Positions 1,544-57,110 of a DNA stretch of 64,000 nucleotides are shown one piece after another. Under the pieces are notes generated by a model. It was not told the origin of the DNA, did not search any database, and saw only the letters and a program-made list of their open reading frames with translations. Source of the DNA: a virus; IMG/VR virus record IMGVR_UViG_3300037470_000856, positions 1 to 64,000 of that record; one strand, given 5' to 3'. How positions within the stretch are numbered: the stretch's first letter is position 1; each line of letters opens with the position of its first letter. The position numbers were made by a program, and so were the translations under genes.

Positions 1544-4224
1544 CAGGTGTCTCCCTTGAAGAGCGCGCGGAACACATCCAGGGCGAGATTGGGGATGCCA
1601 CCCGCGAACAGCACGATGCCGCCGCCGTAGGAGTCGGTCTCCGCGTTGGCCGGAGGGATGGGCTTGTTCTGCGATTCGATGAGAGCCGTGGTGACCCCGG
1701 CGGTGCCGGGCGCCACGACCACGAGGCCGGCCGCGGGCACGATGGAAAGGAAGAACCTGAGAAGACGCTGGATGAGGGCGTTGAGTCGGTTGAGAAATGC
1801 CTGGAGCTCGCGGATGCGGCTCTGGAGGAACTCGATGTATCGGCGGATGGTCTCGGCGATGCTCTCGATCGCGGCCTGGATGGCGCGCAGCAGCGCGAGG
1901 ATCTGATCGAAGAAGCGGTCGATGGCCGGGATGCCCTGCGGGAACAGACGGAAGGCGATCCAGCCCCGCTCCTGCGGGCGCACCTGAGGGCCCACGGCGA
2001 CCCGGAGAACGAACTGCGCGCCTGCGTAGACGGTGTCCGGGATCAGATTGCGGATGAACGCGATCCGGCGCAGGCGCAGACCTTCCCGGCTGTACACCAC
2101 CGGCGCGGCGTCCATTGATCCGCGACCCAGGAACGGGTTGGTCCCCGTGAAGTTCGGGTTGTCGTCGTTTGAGGCGAAGAAGAAGTGAGGTTCGCGCTGG
2201 AGCTCCCGCTCATCTCGGATGAGGACGGAAATGCGGTCGGCCGCCCGAGGGACGCCGATGGAAAGCGAGTTCGGGTTGGGCCCGATGCCGAACTGCACGT
2301 TGGAGTCCTGGAGAAGCTCAAGCAGGGAGCCTCCCTCAAGGTCGCCCGGGAAATTGGGGTCCGTCGTCGAGATGATGGGTCCTATCGGCGACTGGAGGAT
2401 CTGGAAGTTGAGCAGATCCTCCGCGCGCTCGACCGCGAGCTGCCGCGCCGCGAACGGAGGCAGGTTCTGCGTGAGCATCCGGTTCGTCAGGTTGATGCAG
2501 TTGACGAATAGCTTACGACGGAACTTAGGGACGTTGGCGTTGGCCTCCTCGAAGAACTTCTTGACCTGCCGTCGGCCGACGAGCTTGACCATCATGAACT
2601 GCGCGAGCTCCTCAAGCCCTGTCGCCTTGTTGGCGCGCCCCTCGAACTCGTTCCACCACATCGGCTTGTTTCCGTTGGAGAGAACCCCGGACGGCGGGTA
2701 TCCGATGGGGCCGTTCTCTCCGTAGAGCACGGGGATGTCGGCCCGAGAGAGAGCGAGCACAGCCAACGCCTCCGCCACGGCCCGCAGGTAGAGCTGCGTA
2801 CTCGCGTCCGGGAACAGGATGGGCGTCACGAAGGACGGAGGCCCCACGTCGTCGAGGCCCACGACGTCCGGGTTCTTGATAGGCAGCACGGGCCCTTCGC
2901 GGTCGCGCAGGGCCGTCTGGTCGGCAATGAACTGGTAGTCCGTCGCGCTCTTGATGTCGCGGCTCACGGCGCGTACGCGAACGAAGAACCGCTCGGGCTG
3001 TCGGTTGTCGTTCTTCCGGGTGATGTTGCCTCCTCCGAAGAGGCTGGTCCTGAGGTCGAACTCCGCCTCGTACGGCATGTCCTCGAACACGAAAGTCGCC
3101 CCGTATCCCTTCCCCGGGAAGAAGAAGTTCTGCGCGAAAGGGACGTAGAACGTCTTCTGGAGAAAGTGCCTGTCCCCCTCCTGTAGCTGATCGAGCGGGA
3201 TGGGAGCCTGGTCGCTGAGGTTCTTGATGCCGTAGATGCGAACGGCGTCGCTCTTGAACTCGCCCCGGAAGTCGATCGCGTCGTTCCAGTTGACGGCTCC
3301 GCGCACGTCGAGCTGCTGGATGCCGCCGCGCAGGAGGATCGGGTTGCCGTCCTCGTCGAGGACGTCCACCACTTCGGTCTTGGCCGGCTGGTTATTGAGG
3401 TCCATATGCTGCGCGGAGCCCTCGATGACACGCTCGGCCACGAGTTTGATCGGCTGCTCAAGCGTGGAGAACTCGACGAGGAACCCGGCTGGCGGCAGCA
3501 GGGGCGTGTCGGGGAACGGCGCCCCGGGGATGGGAGCCATCTGCCACGTCAGGTTCACCGCGTTGTACGGGTTGTTGATGCTGTCGTCGGGGCTGCCCTT
3601 GTCGAAGATCTCGCTGCGGAAGAAACTCTTGTTGAACGAGAAGATCGTGGCACCGTCGTACCCGTAGGTCGCCTGCACGTTGGTGACCTTCCCGATCATG
3701 CGCGGCACCGGGTACTTGCGGTTGAAGAGAGCGAGGATCGCCTTGATGAGCTGGATGATCCGGTTGATGCCGCGGATGTCAGCCTGCACGAACAGGAACA
3801 CCGCGAGGCACGTCGAGAGCTCGCTGATGTCGGGACGGTTGGGATCCGACGTGTCCTGGAGGCGCGCGACCATCCGCGTCTCGTACTGAAGATAGCCGCC
3901 CTTGAGCTCCTTGAAATCGGGGCCCTTGAGTGAGTAGAAATCGCCGTGGATGTAGATGCCTAGCTGCCGGAGGTCGTTGAGAATCTGCTCGATGAGGTTG
4001 CGGAGCGCCTCAATGAGAGCGATCAAAGGGTCGAGCAGCCCCGTGAGGAAAACCTTAAGCAGCTCGAGGACAGCCAGGAGGATGTCGAGGATGCGGATCA
4101 GGAAGGAGAAGAAGGCGTCAACGGCCTGGCGGACGGGCTCGAGAAAGTCAGGGATCTCGAGCGAAATGGTCTGCCAAGTGCCGACGATGCCCTGCTGTTG
4201 TGGTCCCTGTTCTGGGTTGGCCAT
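1543..4224 (-). CDS. Hypothetical baseplate/tail-associated protein (893 aa) with long amphipathic helical ends
   Basis: Long ORF with native codon usage. N- and C-terminal Leu/Ile-rich heptad-like helices flank a beta-rich core. Confidence 0.7.
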   Translation of the reverse strand: MANPEQGPQQQGIVGTWQTISLEIPDFLEPVRQAVDAFFSFLIRILDILLAVLELLKVFLTGLLDPLIALIEALRNLIEQILNDLRQLGIYIHGDFYSLKGPDFKELKGGYLQYETRMVARLQDTSDPNRPDISELSTCLAVFLFVQADIRGINRIIQLIKAILALFNRKYPVPRMIGKVTNVQATYGYDGATIFSFNKSFFRSEIFDKGSPDDSINNPYNAVNLTWQMAPIPGAPFPDTPLLPPAGFLVEFSTLEQPIKLVAERVIEGSAQHMDLNNQPAKTEVVDVLDEDGNPILLRGGIQQLDVRGAVNWNDAIDFRGEFKSDAVRIYGIKNLSDQAPIPLDQLQEGDRHFLQKTFYVPFAQNFFFPGKGYGATFVFEDMPYEAEFDLRTSLFGGGNITRKNDNRQPERFFVRVRAVSRDIKSATDYQFIADQTALRDREGPVLPIKNPDVVGLDDVGPPSFVTPILFPDASTQLYLRAVAEALAVLALSRADIPVLYGENGPIGYPPSGVLSNGNKPMWWNEFEGRANKATGLEELAQFMMVKLVGRRQVKKFFEEANANVPKFRRKLFVNCINLTNRMLTQNLPPFAARQLAVERAEDLLNFQILQSPIGPIISTTDPNFPGDLEGGSLLELLQDSNVQFGIGPNPNSLSIGVPRAADRISVLIRDERELQREPHFFFASNDDNPNFTGTNPFLGRGSMDAAPVVYSREGLRLRRIAFIRNLIPDTVYAGAQFVLRVAVGPQVRPQERGWIAFRLFPQGIPAIDRFFDQILALLRAIQAAIESIAETIRRYIEFLQSRIRELQAFLNRLNALIQRLLRFFLSIVPAAGLVVVAPGTAGVTTALIESQNKPIPPANAETDSYGGGIVLFAGGIPNLALDVFRALFKGDT

Positions 4225-4227
4225 CCG

Positions 4228-4527
4228 CTATCTCCCTCCTCCTCGCTTGAGGCGCATGAGCTGGTAGTTCAACTCGTCGGTCTCCTGGAGGTCTCGCTTG
4301 ACCTGCTCCTCGAGGATGACGCCCATCTCCTTAAGCATCTCGGCGTACCAACTGAGCGTCGGCAGGTTCGCCTTGTCTCCCGCCTTGACGTAGTCCTCGT
4401 TGTCCGTCCACTTGCCCGGATCGATGCCGGACGCCCGGAGACGCTCCTCCACCTCCTCAACCGTCATCTTGGTCATGTCAAAGTCGAAGGGACTCCGGTA
4501 CTCCCACTTGTGCTTCCTCGTGGTCAT
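4228..4527 (-). CDS. Small hypothetical protein (99 aa), C-terminal coiled coil
   Basis: ATGA overlap with the 3642-aa gene stop (4524-4527) supports the start MTTRKHKWEY rather than 4659. Confidence 0.7.
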   Translation of the reverse strand: MTTRKHKWEYRSPFDFDMTKMTVEEVEERLRASGIDPGKWTDNEDYVKAGDKANLPTLSWYAEMLKEMGVILEEQVKRDLQETDELNYQLMRLKRGGGR

Positions 4528-33466: not shown

Positions 33467-33640
33467 CTATAAACGGAGAAACGAAGAGAGCCACGCGCGG
33501 GCGACGCGCGAGGCGCTCCAGGCTAGAGGGTTGCCTTGGCGCATGGCCCAGCGTTTTGCGGGGTCCGACTCGGTCTCGAAACGCCGCGCGAGCTCGGTAG
33601 GCGGGACGTTCATGTAGGCCACATCGTGAAACTCGCTCAC
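33467..33640 (-). CDS. Small ORF (57 aa) carrying an RVAxxW motif
   Basis: Below the ORF-track cutoff. GTGA overlap with the AdoMetDC stop. Translates MSEFHDVAYMNVPPTELARRFETESDPAKRWAMRQGNPLAWSASRVARAWLSSFLRL. Confidence 0.45.
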   Translation of the reverse strand: MSEFHDVAYMNVPPTELARRFETESDPAKRWAMRQGNPLAWSASRVARAWLSSFLRL

Positions 33641-34098
33641 GGCCAGTGTCTCACAATCCAGTGGCTCGACCTGATTTTCACGTTGAAGCGAGATTGCAGG
33701 AACTCGTCCGTCGCCGACGAGCTGAACTCCTTGCAGGAGAACACATCGAGCGCGAAGCGGTGACGCAGGGGCCAGGTGTGGATGCTGAGATGGCTCGTGG
33801 TGTGGATGCTGAGATGGCTCGTGGTGTGGATGCTGAGATGGCTCGTGGTGATGATGCAGGTGCCCGTGACGCCGCCGTCGTCCTCGAGCGTGCCCCCCAT
33901 CTTGGCCGGCTCGAGCGGGACGGTCTTGAACGTAGGGGCGACGAGCACCTTCATGTCGAGGAGTTCTACGAGGTCGAGGAACACCTTCTTGAGGAACACG
34001 ACGTCCCCGAGCTGCCCCGACTTCTCGGGGTTCACGACGGCGTCGTAGGTAAGGTGCCAGCCGGCGTAGTTGTTGTCCATGGCGGCACTCGGGTTCAC
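33637..34098 (-). CDS. speD: S-adenosylmethionine decarboxylase proenzyme (SpeD/SpeH-type) with a triplicated cleavage motif
   Basis: GWHLTYD...GGVTGTCII-TSHLSIHTWP...ALDVFSC matches the pyruvoyl-dependent AdoMetDC pattern. Confidence 0.85.
   Translation of the reverse strand: MNPSAAMDNNYAGWHLTYDAVVNPEKSGQLGDVVFLKKVFLDLVELLDMKVLVAPTFKTVPLEPAKMGGTLEDDGGVTGTCIITTSHLSIHTTSHLSIHTTSHLSIHTWPLRHRFALDVFSCKEFSSSATDEFLQSRFNVKIRSSHWIVRHWP
33778..33849. repeat. Perfect 24-bp tandem repeat x3 (gtggatgctgagatggctcgtggt)
   Basis: Directly visible. Encodes TTSHLSIH three times. Confidence 0.95.
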
Positions 34099-34108
34099 GC
34101 CAACCGTT

Positions 34109-36703
34109 TCAAGCCCGGAACACCAGGAGCGGATCAGCTCTCGTGGCGCCGGATTTCAGCCTTCTCACCGGCATGTAGATGGTCGGCTCTACGCGGAAAC
34201 CAAGACGGGATGCTTCCCTGACCGCTTCGTCCGCGAGGACCACCCCATCGAGCGGCTTGGCGGGAAGGTTCAGGACGAGATGCGCCCCGAGCTTGAGACG
34301 GGCACGTGCCGTTTTCATCACCGGCACCAAGAACCCGGCGATCCACCTCGCAATGCTCCCGTACGATAATGCCTCGGCCGAGGCGCTCCCGTAGACCTCC
34401 AAGTCGAAGTAGGGAGGGGACGTGAAGACGAGGTCCAACGGACGACCAGGATCAAAAGTCTCCGCCCGGGCGCAAACAATCTCGCACCTGTCGACAACTT
34501 CAAGATCCCGGGCCAAGCGCAGGTTGCCCTCAACAGTCTGAGGTTCGACGTCGGTCCCGAGGTAAGTCCCCACCCCTGCAGCCATCGCCCCGAAAAGACG
34601 GCCACCATATCCTGCGCAAGGGTCCCACACGACGCCTCCGCGATCACCATAAGTTTGGCAGATGTACTTCGCCACCGCAGGCCGAAACACGGACGGCGTC
34701 CGGCACAGCATCTGGAGGGCCCGCAGCACGCGTGCTGGCGTCGTGGGGTGCCCCGCGTTGAGTTGCACTCGGACCGCGGCCCTAAGCCTGTCGTCGTCGT
34801 CCCATGCTTCCCGAACGCTACGCGCTTTCTTGTACCGGGCCTCGTAGCGATTCGGGAAGAAAGAGGCACACGCGATCGTGCCGCGCAAGGTGTACGGCCG
34901 CACGAATCCTTCCCCGTCAAGCCACACTTCCTGTTGACGCAACTTGGTGAACTCGGCCTTGGTCTTGGGTGACGGGAGGATATCAGGAAACCCTTGGGCC
35001 CTCAGCGTCTCCAGGATCTCCTCTACGTCCCGCACCTTGGCCTCTTCGCTCTTGTTGGCCCATAACGTGACATCGTTCCCAAGAAGTCTTTTCCAAAACC
35101 CTTGGTCGTGGATCGGATCGCTGTACCGCACGATTTTCACCGTGTACCCAATCTCCCGCGCGCGGGAGACCTTGAAGTCGTCAATCTCGCGGAGGCGCTC
35201 AAATTCTTCGTGGGTCTTGTGCCACGATTCGATGAAGTAAAAATGCTGCTCTCCGTGGGCCTCAATGATCAGGTTACGCGCCGGGAAATAGCCGTCAAAG
35301 TGAAATTTGCGCCCCGTTGCACCGTTCACAATTCTCGGGTCCGTCCACTCAGGTTCGTAGTGAACCCCCAAAAACGACGCCACCCCGTCCAGCACGGCCT
35401 TTTGCCAAGCGAGACGGCTCCGCGTTTTCAACCCGAGATCGGAACAGTTTCGGCGAATTTGCCACTGTGCGCAGCGGAAAGCCCTTGAAGCAGCAGCAGC
35501 GATGACTCGTCCTTTGTCATCCATGAAGGGACGGAGTTGCTCCGCCGTCAACACGAGTTTGTTGGTGGGGGGGAGCCGCTGTCCGGCTCGTAGTGCCGTC
35601 AGGGGGGCCTTCGGATGGTCCCGGCAATAACGTTCAAGGGTGTGCGCTGAACGGACGTGAGACGTGAGATTCTCCGCACGATGCCCGCACTCCCGGCACA
35701 TCACGAAGTCCTCCGGCTCGCTCTTTTCTCGCCACAGCACAAGGTCGTCCTCTGCCTTGCATTCCTCGCAGCGCAGATCGTGCAGTGAGCCCGCGAACAG
35801 AGACACCCGGACACCTTGTCCGCAGGTTGGACACGAAACCTCCTTGAGGGTCCCTTTCATGTAGTCGTTCGCTGCTCGGCCCTCTAACGAGCGCGCCAGT
35901 CGTGCCTGCTCAACCTTCTCAATGCGCCAGCGCACACCGGGCCACTTCGCCACGTAGACGGACGGAGTTGTCCTGTGCTCAGTCTTGAGGTGCTTCCACA
36001 AGTTCAGCGCACGATGTCCGCACTCCATGCAGACGACGTGGTTAATGCCCTCCTCGCCGAGTCGCTCCTGCTCACGCCGCTCACGCCATGCCCGGTGCTC
36101 GTCGTCTTTGGCGTGAGAAAAATGAGCGCCGAGTCCTCTCTGCCCTACGCACATCGTTCCGCACACGGGACAGGACGTGTCGGCTCCTCGATCCTTGAGG
36201 TCGCATGTCGTGCACAGAAACCTCGATCGCTTGGAGGCAGAGATGGCAGACACCTCCATCGGCTCCCCACATCCCTCACAGGGAACCTCGACGGTTCTGA
36301 TTTGTCTCGACTCCCTGGCGCGTGCCCGGTTGTTCTCAGTGGCTCTCACCGTCTGGAGTTCCCGTCCCCGCTCCCGAACCACATCACCGCCGTACACCTC
36401 CTCCCACCACGCCCGCACCTGCGTGTAGTGGACACCGAGGCGCTTCGCGACACCCTTCATCGGCTCACCCCTCTCAAAGGCCACGACGGCCTTGGCTTGA
36501 ACCGCAGAGTTCCCTGCGTTCCCCGTCTGCGCCTTGGCGAGTCCGCGAAGACGGTTGCCACGCTCTCGCACGGCATCACCGAACTCTTCCTTCCACACAC
36601 GGTAGACCCGATCACGACCCACGCCCACCCGCTTGGCCACGACGTTGGCAGCATCGTTGGAGCGGAAGGCGTCGAGGATCTGCGAGCGGACTTCAGGAGT
36701 CAC
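34109..36703 (-). CDS. HTH/zinc-finger + PD-(D/E)xK nuclease + amino-DNA-methyltransferase-like fusion (864 aa)
   Basis: Two HTH-like repeats and several CxxC/C2H2 fingers. FDGYF..LIIEAHGEQH nuclease motif, DPCAGYGGR SAM-binding motif and FTSPPY catalytic motif. Lower GC than its neighbours. Confidence 0.8.
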   Translation of the reverse strand: MTPEVRSQILDAFRSNDAANVVAKRVGVGRDRVYRVWKEEFGDAVRERGNRLRGLAKAQTGNAGNSAVQAKAVVAFERGEPMKGVAKRLGVHYTQVRAWWEEVYGGDVVRERGRELQTVRATENNRARARESRQIRTVEVPCEGCGEPMEVSAISASKRSRFLCTTCDLKDRGADTSCPVCGTMCVGQRGLGAHFSHAKDDEHRAWRERREQERLGEEGINHVVCMECGHRALNLWKHLKTEHRTTPSVYVAKWPGVRWRIEKVEQARLARSLEGRAANDYMKGTLKEVSCPTCGQGVRVSLFAGSLHDLRCEECKAEDDLVLWREKSEPEDFVMCRECGHRAENLTSHVRSAHTLERYCRDHPKAPLTALRAGQRLPPTNKLVLTAEQLRPFMDDKGRVIAAAASRAFRCAQWQIRRNCSDLGLKTRSRLAWQKAVLDGVASFLGVHYEPEWTDPRIVNGATGRKFHFDGYFPARNLIIEAHGEQHFYFIESWHKTHEEFERLREIDDFKVSRAREIGYTVKIVRYSDPIHDQGFWKRLLGNDVTLWANKSEEAKVRDVEEILETLRAQGFPDILPSPKTKAEFTKLRQQEVWLDGEGFVRPYTLRGTIACASFFPNRYEARYKKARSVREAWDDDDRLRAAVRVQLNAGHPTTPARVLRALQMLCRTPSVFRPAVAKYICQTYGDRGGVVWDPCAGYGGRLFGAMAAGVGTYLGTDVEPQTVEGNLRLARDLEVVDRCEIVCARAETFDPGRPLDLVFTSPPYFDLEVYGSASAEALSYGSIARWIAGFLVPVMKTARARLKLGAHLVLNLPAKPLDGVVLADEAVREASRLGFRVEPTIYMPVRRLKSGATRADPLLVFRA

Positions 36704-36747: not shown

Positions 36748-39700
36748 TCAACCTCCTAGGTTGGAGCGGAGGTTGAAGGTTATAACGATGTATAAAAGTG
36801 GAAAGACGGGCTGGTAGAACGCCTCCACCTCGACGACCGTCGGGTCGTTGGTGGTGCGCGCCTGGATGCCGGTGAACGCCGTGATGATCTCGGCGTTCTT
36901 GAGCGCCTTCATCGTCGTGGCGAGCTGTCCCTCGATCTCGGACAGGACTCCCGGCAGGAACTTGATGCCGATGAACCTGTCGAGGTCGCGCCGCGCGGCC
37001 CTCTGCACCTCGTCCGCGATGGTGATCACGGTCGGGAGCTTCGTGAGGATGTTGCTGATGTCCGTCGTCAAACCCTGGCGGATGCGGATGACGGTGCCGC
37101 TCTGGTCGAGCACGGTGACACCCTGGACAGCCACCTGGTTCTGCTCCACCGCGTCGAGGTTGCGCTGGAGTTGGTCGAACCCGACGATGCGAGCTCGCGT
37201 CCACGGGGTCGCCACGTCGATGTTCGGCCGCGCCCGGTCACCCGCGACCGCGGCCGCGAGGTAGGTCCCGTCGACCAGGAACTGCTTGTCGTTGCCGAGC
37301 GCGTCCTGGATGGTGACGGTCACGATGTCCGGGTAGACCAGGCGGATGCGGGTGTTGTGGATCTGGTTGGCGATCCCGCCCACGTCGCTCGGCTGCGTCC
37401 CCGACGACACCCCGATGATGGCCGTCCGCTCGGAGCGGTACCGGATACTCGACTGGATGTCGCAGTGGTTCTTGAGAGCCAGGAACAGGTCGACGTCGTC
37501 GCCCTTGAGCGGGGTGATGGTGTCGAGCGTCCCGCCGCCCGGAAGCGGCCCGCGCAGGTCGTTGAGCGCATCAAGGTACGACGGTGTGCTGGCCTGGTTG
37601 CTGCCCGGGATCTTCGGCACCTGCTTGATGCCGAGGACCACCGCGCCGTTCAGGAAACTGAGGAACGCCGCGAGAGAGACCGGGTTGTCCGGGCTGATTT
37701 CACCGTAATTGCGCTCCACGGCCCGCTGGTTCGTGAACAGCATCGTCTCGAAGTCGGCCTCGGTCTTCGTGTAGTTGTAGGTCACGAAGTAGCTGTCGCC
37801 GACCGCCGGCTCCTGGCCACCGCTCTCGAAGGTCTCGACGATCGCGGTGTCCCCCTGCGGGATGGTCGACCCCTCGGTGTTGGCCACCGTGAGCTCGAGG
37901 CCCGGGATCGAGTTGGCCGGGAGGTTGGCGTCAGTGGTGACGAGTTTGCGCACCTCGAAGGTGAACCAGGCCCCGGCCCCGGTCGGGTAGTCCGCCCCGC
38001 CCTGACGCTCGAGGATCGTGAACACGAGCCCCGTCTTGGTGTCGCGGTAGGTCTGCCCGATGACGCCGTCCTGGCCCACGCCGTTGTTGAGACACGAGGT
38101 GTCCACCGAGCCCGACCCGTCGATCGGATCGGAGCTCGTGACGTAGAAGCCCTGGAAGCCGCTCTCGCCGGACGCTCCGTCGCCGGAGGCCACGTCGAGG
38201 CCGGTTCCCGTGAGCAGCCACGAGGCCGTGCTCGCGTTCAGGAACGAGATGTTCGAGGACGCCCCCAAGCCGACGATGTTGTTGGCCTGCGACTGAACGA
38301 ACAGGAACTCGTTGTTCGCCGAGTCCACCATCTTGCCCGCGAGGGCCTGGTCGGCGAAGAACGTGGTGTCCGGGCTCTGGTAGTCCAGGAGCGCCCCGTT
38401 GACTGTCGTGCTGTGGTGCATCATCAGCGCCGAGGCGACCTTCTCCACCTCGACCAGAGACCGCGCGGCCGTGGCCCCCTCGGAGAACCCGAGGACGTCG
38501 TTGGCGTTGCCGTCGTTGATCGTCACCGCGGAGCTGGTGTCGGACAGGCTCGAGACGAGGCGGATGCCCGCGCCCTCCTGCACGACCGAGTCGGCGGGCA
38601 ACCCCGCTCCGACGCACGCAGTCTGGATCTGACGCAACACCGTGTTCGGGCTCGTCACCGGGCCGAGCGGCACGAGCGCCTCTCCGGCCGCCGGGATCGC
38701 GGCTCCGGTTCCGTCCGTGACGACAACCGTCACCGGGGTCCCGTCGATGTTGAACTTGAACACGTTGTTGCGCGGGTTTAGGCCGCTCGCCCCGTAGAAC
38801 TGCACCGCGGGCTGACCGTCACGGTCGTCACCGTAGGTGCCCGAGGCGACCTGGCCGTCCTTGAACCCGACCTCGCCGAAGAGGCTGGCGGGGCGGATGG
38901 TCGCCTCGATGTCCGCCTGCCCGAAGGCCTTGGCCGACAGGCCGGTGAACGCGGAGGCGTTGGTCCCCTCGACGACCAGGGAGGTCTGCGCGACCTGGCT
39001 CTCGGGCCGGATTGACCCGGATCCCGGGACGACGCGGTTGCGCATGAGGATGCGGTCGTAGAGGAGGCGACCCGAGGAGCCGGCCACGGTGAACCGACGG
39101 GCGATGTCGCCGTCGATGACCTTGGTCTGCTCCTGGCTCGGAAGCGCGTCCGTGGACAGGCCCGCGAGCACCGCGAAGTCCTCGCCGACCGACGATGCGT
39201 CGATGAACTCGAATACGCCGCCGCCGAGGCCGGTGCCGCCCGTGAGGGTGGACGCCGACACGGGGAGACGCACCCCGCTGCTCGAGGACAGGTCGATGAA
39301 GTTGCCGCTCGGCCCGGGGACGGCCGCCGTGAGATCCACGGTGGATGATGTGCCCGAGGTGTTGTCGGCCGTGACGAGCGCGTCGAGCCCGTTGAGGGGG
39401 TCGGTGGTCGCCGTGACGATAGTCGTCGCGACGCCCACGTCGGTGAGGCCCCCGCCGAAGGTCGCTCCCGAGACGGGGAGGCGCACGCCGGGCGAACTCA
39501 TGAGCAGGACGCCGTTCGCCCCCACGCCCGGGATGTTCGCCCACACGGTGACCGTGGTGGACGTGCCACCCTCGTTGTTCGCCGTGAGGTACAGCGCCAG
39601 GCCGTTGCCGGGATCGTTGATCGCGGCGACGATAGAGGTGGCCACCGACAGGTTGGTACCGACGCCTCCCTGGAGGGTGAGGGCCGACATGAGCAGGCGA

Positions 39701-42700
39701 GTCGCGCTCGAGCTCGTGGTGTCGATGATGTTGCCCGCGTTTCCGGGGGTGACCGCGGTCATCGTGACCCCGCTGCCCACCGCCATGGCGGTGACCGTGA
39801 CGCTGATGCCGTTGCCGGCGTCGTTGATCGCCGCGGCGATGGAGGCCGCCACCGTGGTGTTGTCGCCCACGCCGCCGAGCAGCGTGCCGCCCGACAGGAC
39901 AATGCGCGCCGCCGCGGTGGTGCTGAGAGTGATGCCGTCGCCGACGATTCCCGGGGTGAACGCGTCGATGGTGACCACGTTCGAGGTGCCGCCGACGTTG
40001 CTCGCGACCACGAGGGTCAGGCCGTTGGCCAGGTCGGTGATGGCCGCCACGAGGCTCGTCGCCACCGAGATGTCGTCGCCCACGCCACCGAGCAGCGTGC
40101 CGCCCGACAAGACGAAGCGTCCCGCCGCGGTGGTGCTGAGGGTGATGAAGTTGCCGACGATTCCCGGGATGACCGCCGTGAGATTCACAGTGGTGCCCAC
40201 GACGACCGCGCTGACGTCGCCGTCGAACGAGTTCGCCACGTCGTTGATGGCCGCCGCGGCGTCCGTGGCCGCGGTCGCGTCGGTCCCGACGCCGCCCATG
40301 AGGGTGGCCGCGCCGAAGGTGAGTCGAACTGGCGCCGTGGAGACGGTGCTGATCGAGTCGCCCGCGACTCCGGGGGTGATGGCCCGGATGTCGACCACCG
40401 CCGAGGCGCCACCCGTGTTGTGGGCCTGCACGGTGCCCGTGAGTCCGTTGAGCGGGTCGAGGATCGCCGCGACGATGGCCGTCGCGGTGGCGATCTCGTC
40501 GCCCACGCCGCCGCCGAAGCCCCCGGTGGTGGTCACGGTGCCGTCCGAACTCATGTTCGTGACGACGTTGGCGAACGATCCGGGGACCGTCCAGGGCAGC
40601 GTCACGTCCGAGGGCCCAGGCCCCACCGCCGCGGACATAAACGTCGAGAAGGAGTTGGCCGGGTCGTTGAGGGCCGCCGCGATCTCGGCGGCGATGGCCG
40701 CCGTGGTGCCGAGCGTCTCGTCGTAGTCGTTCGCGCCCGGAGTGCGGGGGCCGCCCGCGGGAGAGAGCGGGAATGGACCGCCGTTGGCGCCACCCGAATC
40801 GATTGTAATCGTGGCGGAGGCCGGCGCGGCCATCACAATAAGCGTGTCGATCGCCTGGATGCCGGCGTTGAAATTGAGGCCGCCGGGGGTGGTGACGTCG
40901 TCAGCCGTGAGGGCGATGCCCGCGATGATGAGGGTGTCGCCGTACAAGACACCCGTGCTTGGGCCGAGCGAGTCGGCCACGACGGTCAGCATGCCAAGGG
41001 ACCGCGTGCCCGCGTCGAAGTCGTCCGCGCCTGGGGTGCGGGCGCCCTCGACCGGGGTCAGCACGTTGCCGTTGATCGCGGTGGTGTCCGCCGCGACGAC
41101 GGGCCACGGGCCGGCCGAGACCGCCCGCACGCCCATCGTCATGAAGTCACCGGTGGCCGCGGTACCGACGTTGAAGTCCATGCCGCCCGGGGTCAGCGTG
41201 TTGCTGGCCGTCAGGGTGACCGGACCTCCACCCACCACCGAGGTGTCGATGGTGATCGTGTCGCCGTACTGGACGCCGGTGAGCGTCGCCGAACCGGTCG
41301 AGCGGGTGCCCTCGTCGAAGTTGAGACCGCCCGGGGTCTGCGCACCCAGGGCCGTCAGGGTGATGCCGTCGACGGTGACCGTGTCGTTCGGGATCGGGCC
41401 CGAGACGGTGAGGGTGCCCGTCGCCTGGGTGCCCTCGTTGAAATTAATGCCGCCCGGGGTCTGAGCGCCGGTCGCCGTGATGAGCACGGGACCGCCGCCG
41501 AGCACGGTGGTGTCGATGGTGAAGGTGTCACCCGGTTCTACGCTCATCGGGATGAGCGTCCCTCGAGCCTGGCCCGTGTCGTAGTTCAGGCCGCCCGCGG
41601 TGACGCCCAGCTCGCCCGTGAGAGTGATGCCCCCGATGGTGATGGTGTCGCCCACGATCGATCCGACGTTGGTCACGGTGCCCGTGGCGAAGGTGCCGAG
41701 GTCCGTGTCCGCACCGGTGAAGGTGAAGCGCATCTGGCCGTCCGCGTTCGCGCTGCAGACGATGTCGATGCCGTCGAAAGAGGCCGGGAGGGCCGCGATC
41801 GCGGTGTCGAGCGCCGAGTTGACCGCGGCCGCCATGGTGGAGGGCGACAGGTAGATTCCCGGGGCGATAGTCGCCGTGACGGGGCCCGTCGAGCCGTTGG
41901 TGACGCCCATGTAGTTGAAGACGAGCTGGTCGTACTCGCCCGCCGTCATGACGGTCGCCCCGAGGAACCGCGTCGTGCCGTCCAGGAAGGGAGCGTTGGC
42001 GACGAGTTTGGCGTCGGCGTTGATGGCCTCGACGTAGGCGTCGGCGTCGACGCCCGTCTGCGAGGGCACCGTCACGGTGAGGACCACTCCATCCACGGTC
42101 ATCGCCACGGTGTCATTGATGCCCGAGAGGATGTCGTAGGTCGTCTTACCCGAGTCGTCGGTGTAGGCGATCTCGTCGCCGAGCAGGCTCGCGCTGAACC
42201 CGAGACCCTGCACCCCGTGCGGGGCGGACAGGTCGATGCCCGCAGCTCCGCCCGCCAGCACCGCGCTGTCCACGAGGAAACGCGCGCGGTCGGACTCGCC
42301 GGTCACGAAGGCGTAAGGACCCGCGCCATCGACCGTGAACTTGGCGATGGTGGCGTCCTCGTCCGCGAAGGTGACGGTGACCGTCTCCTCGACGGGACCG
42401 TCCGTGCCACCCTCGAAGTGCACGTCCGGCGTGAGCTCGGAGCCCGAGGGGAACTGCACGGTGACGCCGGTCATGGCCGGCCCCTTCACGCCGAAGTTCG
42501 GCGTGAAAATCGGGTTTCCGTTCGAGTCGAACAGGAAGTAGTTGCCGATGCCCGAGGGTCCGGAGGTCTCGACCGTGACGGTGTACTCCTCGTCGACGAG
42601 GATGTTGTAGTAGAAGGTCGCCCACACATCGGCGCCCACGGGCACCGGGTCCTTGAGGGTGATCTCCGTGCCGTTGACCGCCGTGACGGCGACCGCTCCG

Positions 42701-44190
42701 CGCTGGACAGCGTCCTGGAGGCCAAAGCCCCAGTACGCCTTCACCAGGTTAGGGTTGTTGGTCGGGAGGTCGATGCGGTTGTTCGAGAGCGACAGGAAGA
42801 CGTTCTGGCCGAGCGGGTTGTTGCGCCCGTTGCCCGTGGTGGGCTGAGTCGGCAGCGTGAACTTCGTCCGGTCCTCCACCGGAGGTGTCACGGCATCGTT
42901 GACGACGGGCTCCGTCGGCGCCAGAAACCAGCGGTTGTCGACGAGCAGACCGCTGATCTGAGTCGGGCCGAAGGGCGGAGCACCGGGCGTGGTGACGCCC
43001 GGGTTCACGAGGAACGCGGTGCCCCAGACGATGAGGTCGTCCTTGAGGACGAAGTCGGCGTCTTCGATGAAGTCGTTGTTGCCGGGGACGATGCCGCAGC
43101 GCAGGACCTCGGTGACGTTGATGTTCGCGAGGTAGTCGAACGTGTCCTGCCAGGAATTGAAGAAGTACTGGATCGTAACACTCTCGCCGACGCCCGGGGC
43201 GAAGGGGAGCACGACCGCGCGGTTCTGGCCGTCGACCTCGGTCGGGATGACCTGCGTGCCGTCGACGCGGACGGTCACCTTCGAGGTATCCATCGTGGTG
43301 ATGCCGCCGTTGGTGCCGTCCACGATCGGCCCGTTGAAGACGTAGAACGTCCTGTTGCGGTTCGTGTCCTGGCCGTTGGTGAACCCGAGCACCACGTTGA
43401 CGGTGCCCGCGAGGATGCGAATGGCTCGGTCCGCCACAAGACGCACGGCGGTGAGCCCGAAGTTGTTCGTGTAGGTCGAGGCCACCAGGGAAGTGGCCGA
43501 CGCAGCACCGTTGATGAGGGAGACGACCGTGGCCGCGCTCACGCTGCCCGTGGGGAAGGTGACCGAGATCTCCTGGTTCTGGTCGTCGTCGACCCGGAAG
43601 TTGAACTCGTTGGTGTCGACGGTGAACTCGTAAGTGTTCCCGATGGCGCCGTCGAGCACGGCCGACTGAGGCGTGACCTGGTCCGACACGGTGTCGGTGA
43701 TCTGCGTGTCCGTGCGCTTGAAGAAGTAAGTGACGCGGACGTCGTCGCCCAGAACCGGGGCCGTGCTGATCTCGATGACACCGATGTTGGCGCGCGCAAC
43801 GCTCAGGACTACGTCGGGCTGTCCGTTGATCGTCACGAAGATCGAACTGGGATCGGTGGCGATGGTGCCGCTCCCGTCACCGTTGGTGATCGGGTAGTTG
43901 CGGACCTGGATGCGCCGGCGCTCTCCGTTGAAGTTGCCGAGCGTGACCTCGCCCGTCTGGCTGATGCTCACGACGGCGCGACCGGTCTCGTCCTCCTGGG
44001 GGACCTGCTGGTCCACCGACGAGCTCGAGCCACGGAGGACCTCAAGGCTCTGCTGCTGGAGAAGTTCGTTGCCCGTCCCGATCATGACCGGGATGCGCAC
44101 ACCTGCGAGGACACCCGAGACCGGGTTGTCGAATTTTGTGCGGGTGTAGACGCCAGGGGGGCTGTAAATGGTACCCGGAAAATTTGCCAC
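36748..44190 (-). CDS. Contractile tail sheath protein with very large domain insertions (2480 aa)
   Basis: N-terminal YSPPGVYT. Sheath-type C-terminus (RIRLVYP..YLAAAVAG..IRIRQGLTT..FYQPVFPLLYIVITF). AAGGAG RBS. Confidence 0.9.
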   Translation of the reverse strand: MANFPGTIYSPPGVYTRTKFDNPVSGVLAGVRIPVMIGTGNELLQQQSLEVLRGSSSSVDQQVPQEDETGRAVVSISQTGEVTLGNFNGERRRIQVRNYPITNGDGSGTIATDPSSIFVTINGQPDVVLSVARANIGVIEISTAPVLGDDVRVTYFFKRTDTQITDTVSDQVTPQSAVLDGAIGNTYEFTVDTNEFNFRVDDDQNQEISVTFPTGSVSAATVVSLINGAASATSLVASTYTNNFGLTAVRLVADRAIRILAGTVNVVLGFTNGQDTNRNRTFYVFNGPIVDGTNGGITTMDTSKVTVRVDGTQVIPTEVDGQNRAVVLPFAPGVGESVTIQYFFNSWQDTFDYLANINVTEVLRCGIVPGNNDFIEDADFVLKDDLIVWGTAFLVNPGVTTPGAPPFGPTQISGLLVDNRWFLAPTEPVVNDAVTPPVEDRTKFTLPTQPTTGNGRNNPLGQNVFLSLSNNRIDLPTNNPNLVKAYWGFGLQDAVQRGAVAVTAVNGTEITLKDPVPVGADVWATFYYNILVDEEYTVTVETSGPSGIGNYFLFDSNGNPIFTPNFGVKGPAMTGVTVQFPSGSELTPDVHFEGGTDGPVEETVTVTFADEDATIAKFTVDGAGPYAFVTGESDRARFLVDSAVLAGGAAGIDLSAPHGVQGLGFSASLLGDEIAYTDDSGKTTYDILSGINDTVAMTVDGVVLTVTVPSQTGVDADAYVEAINADAKLVANAPFLDGTTRFLGATVMTAGEYDQLVFNYMGVTNGSTGPVTATIAPGIYLSPSTMAAAVNSALDTAIAALPASFDGIDIVCSANADGQMRFTFTGADTDLGTFATGTVTNVGSIVGDTITIGGITLTGELGVTAGGLNYDTGQARGTLIPMSVEPGDTFTIDTTVLGGGPVLITATGAQTPGGINFNEGTQATGTLTVSGPIPNDTVTVDGITLTALGAQTPGGLNFDEGTRSTGSATLTGVQYGDTITIDTSVVGGGPVTLTASNTLTPGGMDFNVGTAATGDFMTMGVRAVSAGPWPVVAADTTAINGNVLTPVEGARTPGADDFDAGTRSLGMLTVVADSLGPSTGVLYGDTLIIAGIALTADDVTTPGGLNFNAGIQAIDTLIVMAAPASATITIDSGGANGGPFPLSPAGGPRTPGANDYDETLGTTAAIAAEIAAALNDPANSFSTFMSAAVGPGPSDVTLPWTVPGSFANVVTNMSSDGTVTTTGGFGGGVGDEIATATAIVAAILDPLNGLTGTVQAHNTGGASAVVDIRAITPGVAGDSISTVSTAPVRLTFGAATLMGGVGTDATAATDAAAAINDVANSFDGDVSAVVVGTTVNLTAVIPGIVGNFITLSTTAAGRFVLSGGTLLGGVGDDISVATSLVAAITDLANGLTLVVASNVGGTSNVVTIDAFTPGIVGDGITLSTTAAARIVLSGGTLLGGVGDNTTVAASIAAAINDAGNGISVTVTAMAVGSGVTMTAVTPGNAGNIIDTTSSSATRLLMSALTLQGGVGTNLSVATSIVAAINDPGNGLALYLTANNEGGTSTTVTVWANIPGVGANGVLLMSSPGVRLPVSGATFGGGLTDVGVATTIVTATTDPLNGLDALVTADNTSGTSSTVDLTAAVPGPSGNFIDLSSSSGVRLPVSASTLTGGTGLGGGVFEFIDASSVGEDFAVLAGLSTDALPSQEQTKVIDGDIARRFTVAGSSGRLLYDRILMRNRVVPGSGSIRPESQVAQTSLVVEGTNASAFTGLSAKAFGQADIEATIRPASLFGEVGFKDGQVASGTYGDDRDGQPAVQFYGASGLNPRNNVFKFNIDGTPVTVVVTDGTGAAIPAAGEALVPLGPVTSPNTVLRQIQTACVGAGLPADSVVQEGAGIRLVSSLSDTSSAVTINDGNANDVLGFSEGATAARSLVEVEKVASALMMHHSTTVNGALLDYQSPDTTFFADQALAGKMVDSANNEFLFVQSQANNIVGLGASSNISFLNASTASWLLTGTGLDVASGDGASGESGFQGFYVTSSDPIDGSGSVDTSCLNNGVGQDGVIGQTYRDTKTGLVFTILERQGGADYPTGAGAWFTFEVRKLVTTDANLPANSIPGLELTVANTEGSTIPQGDTAIVETFESGGQEPAVGDSYFVTYNYTKTEADFETMLFTNQRAVERNYGEISPDNPVSLAAFLSFLNGAVVLGIKQVPKIPGSNQASTPSYLDALNDLRGPLPGGGTLDTITPLKGDDVDLFLALKNHCDIQSSIRYRSERTAIIGVSSGTQPSDVGGIANQIHNTRIRLVYPDIVTVTIQDALGNDKQFLVDGTYLAAAVAGDRARPNIDVATPWTRARIVGFDQLQRNLDAVEQNQVAVQGVTVLDQSGTVIRIRQGLTTDISNILTKLPTVITIADEVQRAARRDLDRFIGIKFLPGVLSEIEGQLATTMKALKNAEIITAFTGIQARTTNDPTVVEVEAFYQPVFPLLYIVITFNLRSNLGG
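39229..41694 (-). repeat. Seven N-half repeats followed by seven C-half repeats inside the sheath (nested domains)
   Basis: A-type xATGT..GDTxTI..TPGGxNFxxG occurs 7 times, then B-type xAxxIxAAINDxxN..PG..GN.I....GGVG occurs 7 times. Confidence 0.85.
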
Positions 44191-46883: not shown

Positions 46884-47939
46884 TTAGTCCCCGGAGCCGC
46901 CGAACGCCTCGTTGAGTGTCGCGGCGATGGATTCCCGGTCCGGCATCTCGTCCTCTTGGTGCGTCTCGCAGAGTCCCCACCGGAAGCAGCCACCACCGGG
47001 GGGAAGCTGCGCCAGACGCACCTTGTGGCCCTTCCGATCGGTCCGGGCCCAGTCCACCACTTCGTCAATCTTCGCAGAGCCCTTTGAGCTGTTGCGCTCG
47101 ATGACCGCCTCAAAGAAGGCCGGGTTCTCCTTGCCGTAGCGGCCGGGCTGCTCCTCGTTGCGGCGACTCCGGATCGCGTGGAAGAGAGTCTCGAGTTCGC
47201 GGACCATTTCGATGTGCTCGGGCGCGAGCTTTGCGATGAGGGCGATCTCGTCCTTGCGCGCGAGGATGCACGGGTAGCAGCCGACGCGGTTGTGCCCCAT
47301 CGTGTAGAGCGGGTTCACGGGGATGTCGTGGCGCTGGTGAATGCGAAGCACGTCGTCGGTACGCCAGTGGTGGATCGGGAGCCACATTTGGCCGTCCCAC
47401 TGCGAGTCGAAGTACCACCGCTCCTTCGCGGCTCGAGACACGCTCTCCTCGGCGCGCACGCCGATGACGTTGACCGTGTCGAGGTCGGTCTCCTCCTGCA
47501 CTCTGAGGTGATAGTTCTTGATCGGGCGCAGCTTGTACTCGATCGTGCACCACCGTCCGATGCGAAGAGGCGACCCTCCCCGGTACAGCATCCCGCGGGG
47601 GAGCGCGCCGAATTTGCGGCCGAGCCTCTTCTCCGCGGCCTCGACGAGTTCCTCAGCCCACGGCTCGAGCTCGGGAGGCGTCGTGCCGACCACGGCCACG
47701 TCGAGCCCGAGTTTCTCGGAGATCTCGTGCACGTAGTCGACGGTGCTGTCGGCCTCCCACCCCGTGTCGGCGAAGACGTGCCTCGCCTCGATGCCGTGCT
47801 CGATCAGGGCGAGCGCGGTGGCGACCGAGTCCTTCCCCCCGCTGAACGAGACGATGGGCTGGTAGTCGGTGAGGTCTGGGACGAAGGAGAGGTCGGTCTT
47901 GGTTTCCGTCCACAGGGAGAGACCGTCGGACTTGCTCAC
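46884..47939 (-). CDS. Phosphoadenosine phosphosulfate (PAPS) reductase-family protein (351 aa)
   Basis: SFSGGKDS PP-loop, FADTGWE, RWCT..K, GVRAEES..R, NPLY..G..RVGCYPC. Confidence 0.85.
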   Translation of the reverse strand: MSKSDGLSLWTETKTDLSFVPDLTDYQPIVSFSGGKDSVATALALIEHGIEARHVFADTGWEADSTVDYVHEISEKLGLDVAVVGTTPPELEPWAEELVEAAEKRLGRKFGALPRGMLYRGGSPLRIGRWCTIEYKLRPIKNYHLRVQEETDLDTVNVIGVRAEESVSRAAKERWYFDSQWDGQMWLPIHHWRTDDVLRIHQRHDIPVNPLYTMGHNRVGCYPCILARKDEIALIAKLAPEHIEMVRELETLFHAIRSRRNEEQPGRYGKENPAFFEAVIERNSSKGSAKIDEVVDWARTDRKGHKVRLAQLPPGGGCFRWGLCETHQEDEMPDRESIAATLNEAFGGSGD

Positions 47940-48949
47940 TCGTCCTCGTATTCCTGCAAGGCCTGGACGAGCAGGCCCCGCGCGACCGCGTCGAGCGGCT
48001 CACGGGCCGCGCGAACCTCCGACACCTCGATCGGAAACTTCCTCTTCTTCTGCTCGAAGACCTGCTGGAAGAACTCAAGGAAGCCCCCGGCCTTGCTCGT
48101 GCCGCCCGAGATGACAATCGGGATCGGGTTGGGCAGTGCGAACTTGTTCTGGATCTTGACGAACTCCTTGGCGACGTTGTCGAGCGCGTACTCGATCAAC
48201 GCCTTGTAGTACACGCAGAGCGCCTCCTCGTCGCGGCTCTGCGGGTGCACGAGATTGAGCCCCTTCTCCTTGAGAGAGCACATGCGGGCCTGCGTCGAGC
48301 CAACAGACTTCGCCGCGCCCGCGTCGATCCAGTCTCCTCCGCGCGCCACCGAGAAACTCAGCCCCTCGATGGTGTTGATGGCGAGTGTCACGTTCGTCAT
48401 GCCCGACCCGAACGAGAAGGCGATGCCGCTGAACACATCCTTCGCGCACTCGGAGTAGATGATGGCCAGCGCCTCGTTGCTCGGGAAGGGACGGTATCCA
48501 CACTCGCTCACGATACGCTCGAGGACGCCGCGGTGGTACACAATGTCGCGAGACGGGTCGTCGACGGGAGCCGCGGGCACGGAGAAGTAACAGATCTCGT
48601 TCTCCTCCTTCGGCTCGCCCAGGACGTGTCGCACGAGGACGCCGAGGATTTCGAGCGCGTCGATCTCCCCGGCCGCGACAAGCCCCGACTGGAGCGGACG
48701 ACGGACCTCCCTGCTCATCATGTTCGCCATGTCGTAGGCGGCGTCCCCCACGACGATGAGGTCGTTCTCCTTCTCGATGTAGTTCACGCCCGACAGCCGC
48801 AGCATCTTGCGGTTCTCGGCAGGCAGGTCGAGGAAGGCGTCACGGATACGGTTCGTGACTACGCCCTTCTTGGTGCGCCTCGCGGCCACGATGTTCATCG
48901 TGCCCATGTCGAGGCCAACGCCCAGGGTCAAAACTTCTTCTTCGGTCAT
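47936..48949 (-). CDS. Actin-like ATPase (MreB/MamK/ParM superfamily, 337 aa)
   Basis: GLDMGT (phosphate 1), NEALA (connect 1), SFGSGMT (phosphate 2), GGDWID, ISGGTS (adenosine), AVARG (connect 2). Confidence 0.85.
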   Translation of the reverse strand: MTEEEVLTLGVGLDMGTMNIVAARRTKKGVVTNRIRDAFLDLPAENRKMLRLSGVNYIEKENDLIVVGDAAYDMANMMSREVRRPLQSGLVAAGEIDALEILGVLVRHVLGEPKEENEICYFSVPAAPVDDPSRDIVYHRGVLERIVSECGYRPFPSNEALAIIYSECAKDVFSGIAFSFGSGMTNVTLAINTIEGLSFSVARGGDWIDAGAAKSVGSTQARMCSLKEKGLNLVHPQSRDEEALCVYYKALIEYALDNVAKEFVKIQNKFALPNPIPIVISGGTSKAGGFLEFFQQVFEQKKRKFPIEVSEVRAAREPLDAVARGLLVQALQEYEDE

Positions 48950-56081: not shown

Positions 56082-57110
56082 CTACGGGGTGAAGAAGGTC
56101 CCGTCGTCGTTGTAAACGACGACCGCCTCGCCGTTGGGGTCACCAGCCACGCCGGCGTAGACGAAGCTGTTCGCGGTGAACGCGGAGAGCTCACCCATGA
56201 CGAACGACAGTGGCAGGCCGTCGTTGAGGAAGAGCGCCCGGTTGCCACTCAACGAACTGACCGGGGGGCTCACGACGTGGAAACCGCCCGCGTCCGCGAC
56301 CTGCGTGCCGGCCGGGAGCGTGAACTTGGCCCCGGCGAGCATGTTGAGCAATTCGGCGAGCGATGTTGTGTCGAGGACGGCCCCCACGAGGAGGCCGTTG
56401 ACGGTGGCGAGATCCAGGACGCCCGCGGCCGACGTCAAGTCTCCGAAAGCGAGTTGACCGAGCGTTGCCGCGGCACTCGCGTTCGCGTCCGCGGCCGTGA
56501 TGGCCGACGCGTCCACGCCGCCCGCCATCGCCGCGGACACCGAGAGGTTGGCGCCCACCTCGGAGAGGAGGATGCTGTTGCCGGCGGTCCCGGCCGTCAC
56601 CGCCGTGATGTCGATGTCCACCGGAGCAGCACCCCCCGGCGTTGCCGCGGTGACGTAGGGGCTCAGGCCGTTCAGCGGGTTGTTGATCGTATTGACCAAG
56701 TTGGTCGCCGAGTCGGCTTCGGTGGCACCCACGAGCACGTCCGTCGTCGCGACCGGAGCCGCGCTGAACGTGAAGGTGACCGAGGGGCCCCCCACCACCG
56801 TGGCGTTGATGGTGGCCGTGTCGCCGGGAGCGACGTTGCCCGCCGCGATCTGGAACTGCCCGGTCGCGGCGACGGCCGTGCCGTCGTTGGTGCGCGCGAG
56901 GAACCAGGCCGACAGCCCGGAGTACGTGCGGAAGGACGTGACGGGGCCCGCGCCGAGCGTGATGACCGTCTCGTTGTCGACCGCGTTGACGTACTTGGTC
57001 TGACCAGGGGCGTCGAGGGTGTAGTTCCGCTGCGACGTGTTGGGCTCCATGTCGAGGATCTGGAGCGTCCCATCGGGGATGTCGCTGCGCTTCATGATGA
57101 TGTACGGCAT
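56082..57110 (-). CDS. Virion decoration-like protein, paralog 2 (342 aa), with a ~120-aa inserted domain
   Basis: Paralog of its neighbours. The insert at ~56511-56877 matches the sheath A+B repeat unit. Confidence 0.65.
   Translation of the reverse strand: MPYIIMKRSDIPDGTLQILDMEPNTSQRNYTLDAPGQTKYVNAVDNETVITLGAGPVTSFRTYSGLSAWFLARTNDGTAVAATGQFQIAAGNVAPGDTATINATVVGGPSVTFTFSAAPVATTDVLVGATEADSATNLVNTINNPLNGLSPYVTAATPGGAAPVDIDITAVTAGTAGNSILLSEVGANLSVSAAMAGGVDASAITAADANASAAATLGQLAFGDLTSAAGVLDLATVNGLLVGAVLDTTSLAELLNMLAGAKFTLPAGTQVADAGGFHVVSPPVSSLSGNRALFLNDGLPLSFVMGELSAFTANSFVYAGVAGDPNGEAVVVYNDDGTFFTP

Follow-up and report, generated by a model that had tools for sequence, protein, structure and literature searches.

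The current study describes what is very probably an unbranched arm built from seven copies of one domain, nested successively within one another and carried as an optional accessory by the tail sheath protein of an uncultured giant phage. The arm is encoded within a window of 64,000 nucleotides, the whole stretch of DNA that was analysed. Each copy of ~117 aa would form a beta-sandwich-plus-helix that is split just before the helix, where the next copy is hosted, such that the chain would run outward through the N-half units A1-A7, turn in an intact tip domain (A7+B1) and return through the C-half units B2-B7. As two strands would cross each junction, the arm would be double-tethered. The insert occupies a beta-hairpin exactly halfway along the sheath chain, which runs out and back, with 832 residues before it and 826 after it in a sheath of 1658 aa without the insert, and so it probably lies outermost, away from the tube. 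At about 3 nm for each of seven domains, we estimate an arm of roughly 20 nm.

Sequence and model comparisons both identify the product of the host gene as a contractile tail sheath protein, with the sheath fold recognized in its C-terminal core. By tblastn, the C-terminal 350 aa match gp178 of Bacillus phage G (E 1e-27) as well as the sheaths of Tunturi_5 and Bxz1-like phages, while Foldseek searches with the model return the phage 812 sheath as the best match (E 8e-11) along with the DSY3957, Lin1278 and pyocin sheaths. No Pfam or PHROG sheath profile gives a hit above threshold with the ORF, the family lying too far from these profiles. Close homologs of the sheath are found on contigs of up to 619 kb.

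The insert comprises 822 aa (residues 833-1654, nt 39229-41694), exactly the span for which the original prediction had proposed seven N-half units followed by seven C-half units, and the proposed run of A7 directly into the first B unit at about nt 40707 is likewise borne out, the two being joined by two residues. The six C-halves B2-B7, of 69-72 aa each, would close D6 to D1 in reverse order. A and B units differ in sequence, as A profiles score ~0 bits on B units, compared with 4-51 bits among A units and 28-79 bits among B units. The unit order is A7B7, which rules out an ordinary tandem domain repeat (AB)n; in contrast, the homolog P0117 contains a true tandem ABAB. The array is neither a chance nor an assembly feature, since its layout is shared by 44 independent homologs and its GC3 (0.89 in the A block, 0.94 in the B block) matches that of the remaining gene (0.91 and 0.94).

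Table. Features of the sheath gene and its insert, with predicted partners and the ranges of the predicted model that align to single solved domains
Feature	Position (nt)	Strand	Residues	Predicted partner	Remarks
Contractile tail sheath gene (predicted)	36748..44190	minus			2480 aa
A block (N-half units)	40714-41694	minus	833-1159
B block (C-half units)	39229-40707	minus	1162-1654
A1	41572..41694	minus	833-873	B7	N-half of D1, the outermost domain; partner assigned by elimination and by co-evolution
A2	41431..41571	minus	874-920	B6	model range 43-750
A3	41308..41430	minus	921-961	B5	model range 88-679; state association in text
A4	41164..41307	minus	962-1009	B4	model range 130-610, Z only 4.1
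A5	41008..41163	minus	1010-1061	B3	model range 178-540, Z only 4.1; state association in text
A6	40861..41007	minus	1062-1110	B2	model range 230-470, Z only 4.7
A7	40714..40860	minus	1111-1159	B1	N-half of contiguous tip domain D7; model range 278-395
B1	40501..40707	minus	1162-1230	A7	C-half of tip domain
B2	40285-40500	minus	within 1231-1654	A6	closes D6
B3	40078-40284	minus	within 1231-1654	A5
B4	39865-40077	minus	within 1231-1654	A4
B5	39658-39864	minus	within 1231-1654	A3
B6	39445-39657	minus	within 1231-1654	A2
B7	39229-39444	minus	within 1231-1654	A1	closes D1
Single contiguous A+B copy in 342-aa protein (ORF 56082-57110)	56511..56873	minus	about 80-200

Pairing of A(i) with B(8-i), the mirror order favored over parallel pairing in the original prediction, is supported by the following observations from sequence and model: 1) residual mirror correlation across 45 sheaths ranks the nested order 1 of 5040 and the strict parallel order 4672 of 5040, and MI-APC ranks the nested order 15 and 10 of 5040; 2) the A3 loop state covaries with the helix-cap Asp of B5 (28/0/0/17) and the A5 loop state with the B3 helix cap (33/0/0/12), both in scattered lineages, although the P values are inflated by the definition of these motif states after viewing the alignment of related sequences; and 3) in an AlphaFold2 model of the arm (mean pLDDT 89.6, no residue <50), the VIA-align ranges listed in the table form six nested spans, in which single solved domains align to A2/B6 through A7/B1. 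Model contacts are read indirectly, through these alignment ranges, three of the six resting on weak matches (Z 4.1-4.7), and the pTM of 0.54 leaves the shape of the arm poorly defined. The motifs proposed to be shared by A5 and A7 and by B1 and B3 were recovered, and single domains that are contiguous show the same pairing of motifs internally. The tip range (278-395, A7+B1) aligns to residues 91-186 of PDB 8kee, the outer domain of the cyanophage A-1(L) sheath, with Z 11.0 and rmsd 2.2 over 94 of about 117 residues at 24% identity. In the model, the fold of the A+B unit is that of the ordinary sheath outer beta-sandwich domain of the A-1(L)/PhiTE/Mu type.

Among homologs, the hairpin carries either nothing, one contiguous A+B domain (about 20 sheaths) or the seven-layer array (44 proteins). 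The single domains measure 111-124 aa with a mean of 117.1, and the array averages 117.4 (822/7). The contiguous A+B copy predicted in the 342-aa putative decoration protein is also confirmed. All 45 aligned sheaths have seven A units; apparent A6B7 homologs were rejected upon alignment, which reveals a divergent A7 that lay below the HMM cut-off. No sheaths of depth 2-6 occur among the best 120 of 642 homolog matches. P0047 has one different domain at the site, yet it is placed within the seven-layer clade. Judging from this protein and from the relatives with 0 or 1 domain, the seven-layer arm appears to be an optional and dispensable accessory. Other phage proteins exhibit balanced HMM-based counts as well (A2B2, A3B3, A4B4 and A4B4/A6B6), and the innermost pair is always of the A7/B1 type in P0123-P0126 and P0128. 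By tblastn, the array was found in none of the isolated phages, and sequence searches of Pfam, PHROG and PDB returned nothing, whether for the insert, for the A7+B1 unit or for the core of the sheath. A weak match to sticholysin/Anemone_cytotox (E 0.15-0.39) was rejected as chance, and further remote copies of the domain in the remaining sheath are unsupported (hhalign probability at most 8.5%).

When weighing other arrangements, one could retain a contiguous A7+B1 tip and pair the other halves in parallel (A1-B2 through A6-B7) as a side-by-side zigzag or ring. Such an order fits the alternation of short A units with long B units and yields the best or near-best A-B similarity correlation (r 0.76 versus 0.56 for nested pairing, and 0.77 versus 0.74 in a second comparison). 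However, similarity-matrix (Mantel) tests alone do not separate the two orders, because both A7 and B1 stand apart as outliers, and this result was left out of the pairing argument. The shifted order ranks 3725 of 5040 by residual correlation and 3280-4374 of 5040 across co-evolution, A3 exhibits no covariation with B4, the model ranges are nested, and short linkers would make ring closure implausible; it is already largely refuted and we consider it very improbable. There is scarcely any likelihood that the blocks fold as two independent repeat solenoids or rods, even though either block is a tandem array at the sequence level, given that A+B is one domain at the same site in about 20 sheaths, that single solved domains span A and B in the model, and that A and B counts are always equal, as had been anticipated. 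Independent solenoids, parallel pairing and unequal counts, the outcomes set against nesting in the original prediction, were all examined and none refuted it. A somewhat different scenario, which we regard as unlikely, is that halves are swapped between neighbouring sheath subunits, the arms then forming not free hairs but a cross-linked outer mesh, or a second shell, with a stabilising effect on the sheath. It has been proposed that extra sheath domains act as stabilisers via neighbour contacts (PMC9230969), and six densely packed arms per ring would probably touch laterally, whereas the mirror-register covariation fits a single-chain fold and the same domain is also nested in non-sheath proteins.

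For the self-nested arm, several suggestions can be made regarding growth and function. At depths 2, 3, 4 and 7 alike, the tip domain belongs to one distinct and conserved type, and the middle layers resemble one another (A2~A4/B6~B4 and A3~A5/B5~B3), which suggests that growth probably proceeded by duplication of middle layers over insertion at the tip. Hence, the proposed recursive insertion of the domain into its own loop holds for the nesting, but probably not for the tip as its route. Most likely, middle layers were duplicated in pairs in both blocks, for example by an out-of-register double crossover, and selection would keep A and B counts equal. As for function, the arm may project radially as a "hairy tail" with a role in adhesion, shielding or scanning. 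The most likely role, at about even odds, would be a many-copy weak-contact or spacer coat on the tail that adheres to cell surfaces or particles, in preference to a part of the contraction machine; adhesion has been proposed for extra sheath domains generally (PMC9230969).

Nesting occurs before the helix in the sheath arm and in P0135/P0243, and, by sequence reading only, after strand 1 (P0129/P0130), after strand 3 (P0262, P0231) and before the last strand (P0171). The ~117-aa domain could thus be a general "telescoping" module of phage particle proteins, a reading we hold to be evenly balanced, in which several loops accept insertions and depth is adjusted between 1 and 7 by balanced increments, allowing the sheath and unrelated structural genes to build length-adjustable, double-tethered arms. 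If so, the tail would be surrounded by a dense brush with a thickness of about 20 nm. For a widespread clade of very large, uncultured phages, the array predicts tails of a form not described before, and the domain offers a small natural scaffold tolerating insertion at several loops. Domains rarely insert recursively into themselves, and the sheath array provides an unbranched seven-layer case within a natural depth series of 0-7 across related genes. Consequently, questions of growth and folding become testable: how a gene is extended if every step calls for coordinated changes at two distinct sites, and how the chain folds if about 700 residues pass before the first half-domain can meet its partner.

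Both Russian-doll sheaths and recursive self-nesting are already known, whereas our incomplete literature search turned up no report of a sheath that nests copies of one domain or of a seven-deep same-domain sheath arm. Russian-doll contractile sheaths include T4 gp18, DSY3957, Lin1278 and diffocin CD1363 (PMC6088184), and "type 3" multi-domain sheaths include those of jumbo phages with five or more domains (PMC9230969). The shared features are a core formed by both termini, nested inserted domains, an out-and-back chain and extra domains away from the tube; however, those sheaths nest a few dissimilar domains, whereas here seven homologous copies are nested linearly on a 1658-aa sheath. The fold of one A+B unit resembles the outer domain of the cyanophage A-1(L) sheath, and the outer domains of the PhiTE, Sf14, Bas63, Milano and Mu sheaths are likewise of this fold, but all of these have one contiguous copy, while six of the seven copies here are split by the next. 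A middling, fold-level likeness (Z 7-8) extends to FliD D2/D3 and FliC/flagellin outer domains (PDB 4nx9, 5h5w, 6iwy), which also lie on the surface of a helical polymer with an out-and-back chain (PMC6248924), although these belong to a bacterial appendage and no seven-fold self-nesting was found for them in the literature searched. Jumbo phages CBB and phAPEC6 have hair-like whiskers on a contractile tail, those of CBB being about 119 nm with genes not pinpointed (PMC5259590); here the likeness is one of description, as the sheath arm would be much shorter and belongs to the sheath protein. A close architectural parallel is the Si3 insertion of cyanobacterial RNA polymerase beta', a recursive self-insertion forming an arm of 150 A in the crystal structure (PMC10895346), whose six-level nesting is the showcase of a 2026 survey of 2.7 million domains (PMC13114784). 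As in Si3, one homologous domain family is recursively inserted into itself to yield an elongated arm, and A(n)B(n) order, equal counts and mirror pairing are all found here in the sequence and predicted model. Membership in the Si3 (sandwich-barrel hybrid motif) family itself is ruled out, as the array resides in a sheath and its unit is a positive match to the outer-domain fold of sheaths, long helix included. Si3 is also branched, with four of eight copies discontinuous and one copy per enzyme, whereas the sheath arm is unbranched, has six of seven copies discontinuous and is displayed on every sheath subunit.

The ORF that carries the array is one of several large structural genes in a row on the minus strand of the window, which forms bases 1-64000 of a 141-kb contig (GC 63-70%). 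Pfam, PHROG and PDB sequence searches left it unnamed. The last 350 aa are similar to proteins annotated as tail sheaths in Bacillus phage G (gp178, E 1e-27), Tunturi_5 and Bxz1-like actinophages, and the modelled C-terminal region resembles the phage 812, DSY3957, Lin1278, pyocin and eCIS sheaths (best E 8e-11). Together, these sequence and structural matches identify the ORF as a predicted contractile sheath. Since contigs bearing close homologs reach 619 kb, the phage is probably very large. The N-terminal part of the sheath (residues about 90-530) has three similar beta-rich repeats, with DUF2460 (PF09343) matches in homologs.

The window encodes an actin-like protein (Pfam Volactin PF25216, E 1e-73), whose gene relatives also keep upstream of the sheath, at a distance of a few genes. 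Between the sheath and a 263-aa gene that directly follows it in some relatives lies an 864-aa ORF, which combines zinc-finger-like repeats with a middle resembling nucleases and an end resembling methyltransferases; at one homologous locus (L057) this gap holds different inserts. GC3 drops to 0.64 in the last 25 sheath codons. A SAM-decarboxylase-like ORF, recognized by eye, has a short motif three times in tandem near a conserved His-Thr-Trp segment.

Coordinates of the array and related features (P and L numbers, homologous proteins and their loci)
Feature	Location	Strand	Remarks
Sheath with array	36748-44190	-	2480-aa ORF
Seven A (N-half) units	sheath residues 833-1159		41-52 aa each
Seven B (C-half) units	sheath residues 1162-1654		69-72 aa each
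SAM-decarboxylase-like ORF	33637-34098	-	
864-aa ORF	34109-36703	-	
Actin-like protein	47936-48949	-	
342-aa protein	56082-57110	-	contiguous A+B copy
536-codon ORF	contig 114353-115960	-	outside the window
P0124	L073:2686-3906		
P0135	L074:6001-8451		two genes after another sheath, past a 164-aa gene

The original prediction described seven A units followed by seven B units, and this layout is present with exactly matching coordinates, as is the contiguous A+B copy it reported in the 342-aa protein. A units have three or four predicted strands. The predicted order in B units is a long helix, a hairpin and then closing strands, and A profiles fail to recognize B units. The 536-codon ORF has a B-half match (E 4e-17). 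In more distant sheaths, the same hairpin holds either no insert or a single contiguous A+B domain of 111-124 aa, displaced by a few residues in a few cases, while the P0117 sheath has a plain tandem ABAB instead. Single-domain inserts average 117.1 aa and the array 117.4 aa per layer (822/7). A+B is one domain and the hairpin is a cassette position.

Unit-to-unit similarity does not separate the nested order, A(i) with B(8-i), from one in which an A7+B1 tip is joined by shifted parallel pairs (A1-B2 to A6-B7). When A and B distance matrices were correlated over 45 sheaths with shared phylogenetic distance removed, the nested order ranked first among 5040 permutations by residual correlation, the shifted order 3725th and the strict parallel order, A(i)-B(i), 4672nd; MI-APC block scores placed the nested order 15th and 10th. 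The covariation can be seen by eye: an A3 loop without Thr-x-Gly accompanies a B5 without Asp after the helix (28/0/0/17) and A5 likewise tracks B3 (33/0/0/12), counts that represent several events rather than 45, given the post hoc definition of the states and the relatedness of the sequences. These coupled changes occur in lineages scattered across the tree, and the same coupling is found within the contiguous single domains of P0094 and P0121, P0111 being an exception. The shared motifs from which nesting was originally proposed behave similarly, as the A5/A7-type loop and an aromatic after the helix co-occur within contiguous single domains.

An AlphaFold2 model of the 822-aa insert (23 sequences; mean pLDDT 89.6, no residue below 50, pTM 0.54) was read through structural-alignment ranges rather than contacts. 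Single solved domains cover exactly the nested spans: 278-395 (A7/B1) aligns to a cyanophage A-1(L) sheath domain (Z 11.0, rmsd 2.2), 43-747/750 (A2/B6) to one of PhiTE (Z 9.7, 82 residues, rmsd 2.2) and 88/91-678 (A3/B5) to one of Bas63 (Z 7.8), with weaker matches for 230-470 (A6/B2), 178-540 (A5/B3) and 130-610 (A4/B4). With six pairs thus matched in the model, the A1/B7 pair follows by elimination. Co-evolution ranks and alignment spans therefore both favor nested over parallel pairing, as predicted.

Equal A and B counts, likewise predicted, are found in all 44 full-length seven-layer homologs (7 + 7; 48-82% identity over the insert) and in 9/9 other nested proteins. The latter were found by searching 1.84 billion representatives with a profile and comprise phage-like proteins with A2B2 (P0125-P0128, P0131), A3B3 (P0124) and A4B4 (P0123), as well as a separate family nesting at the same loop as the sheath array (A4B4 in P0243, A6B6 in P0135). 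The innermost pair of P0123-P0126 and P0128 always best matches the sheath A7 and B1 profiles. These five are small stand-alone proteins consisting almost only of a 2-4-deep nest and may serve this phage group as appendages of the tail or head. By reading of the sequences, unrelated proteins appear to nest the domain at three other loops (P0129/P0130, P0262, P0231, P0171); P0262 is a relative of the 342-aa protein and shares its N-terminus. Among the best 120 of 642 matches, no sheath had a depth of 2-6. On a midpoint-rooted C-terminal core tree, with clades taken by position, seven-layer sheaths largely form one group adjoining one-domain sheaths. P0047, a 1772-aa homolog whose C-terminal core is 83% identical, falls within this group and has at the array site just one A+B domain, and a different one, which suggests that its whole arm collapsed or was replaced.

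How the array grew can be weighed from its layers. The tip is a distinct type conserved across depths. By profile, A4 is the nearest match of A2 and B3 that of B5, and A3 is close to A5 and B6 to B4; P0135 and P0243 are two layers apart. These sequences fit better with middle layers having been duplicated in both blocks than with repeated tip insertion. Of the recursive insertion originally envisaged, the self-nested array is thus upheld by co-evolution and model spans, while repeated insertion at the tip appears disfavored. An out-of-register double crossover could duplicate middle layers in both blocks; unbalanced intermediates would leave one half unfolded and hence be purged.

The array is accessory, as it is absent in many relatives. 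The insert lies midway along the out-and-back sheath chain and is therefore probably outermost. Sheath extra domains face away from the tube, and adhesion or stability roles have been proposed for them (PMC9230969). We favor a many-copy weak-adhesion or spacer coat, at roughly even chances, with a stabilizing outer shell or shield as second choice.

No paper describing a linear sheath arm made of one domain nested seven deep turned up in our literature search. As an architecture, this self-nested arm is well supported; its role is a proposal. In the model, the A+B unit has the same fold as ordinary sheath outer domains and middling likeness to FliD and flagellin D2/D3, T7 gp12-like and T4 gp11 domains. 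In the textbook plan of a sheath, dissimilar domains are inserted into one another in Russian-doll fashion (PMC6088184, PMC9230969), and cyanobacterial RNA polymerase Si3 is a known case of homologous domains nested recursively, with eight copies, four of them discontinuous (PMC10895346), and with six levels of nesting (PMC13114784).
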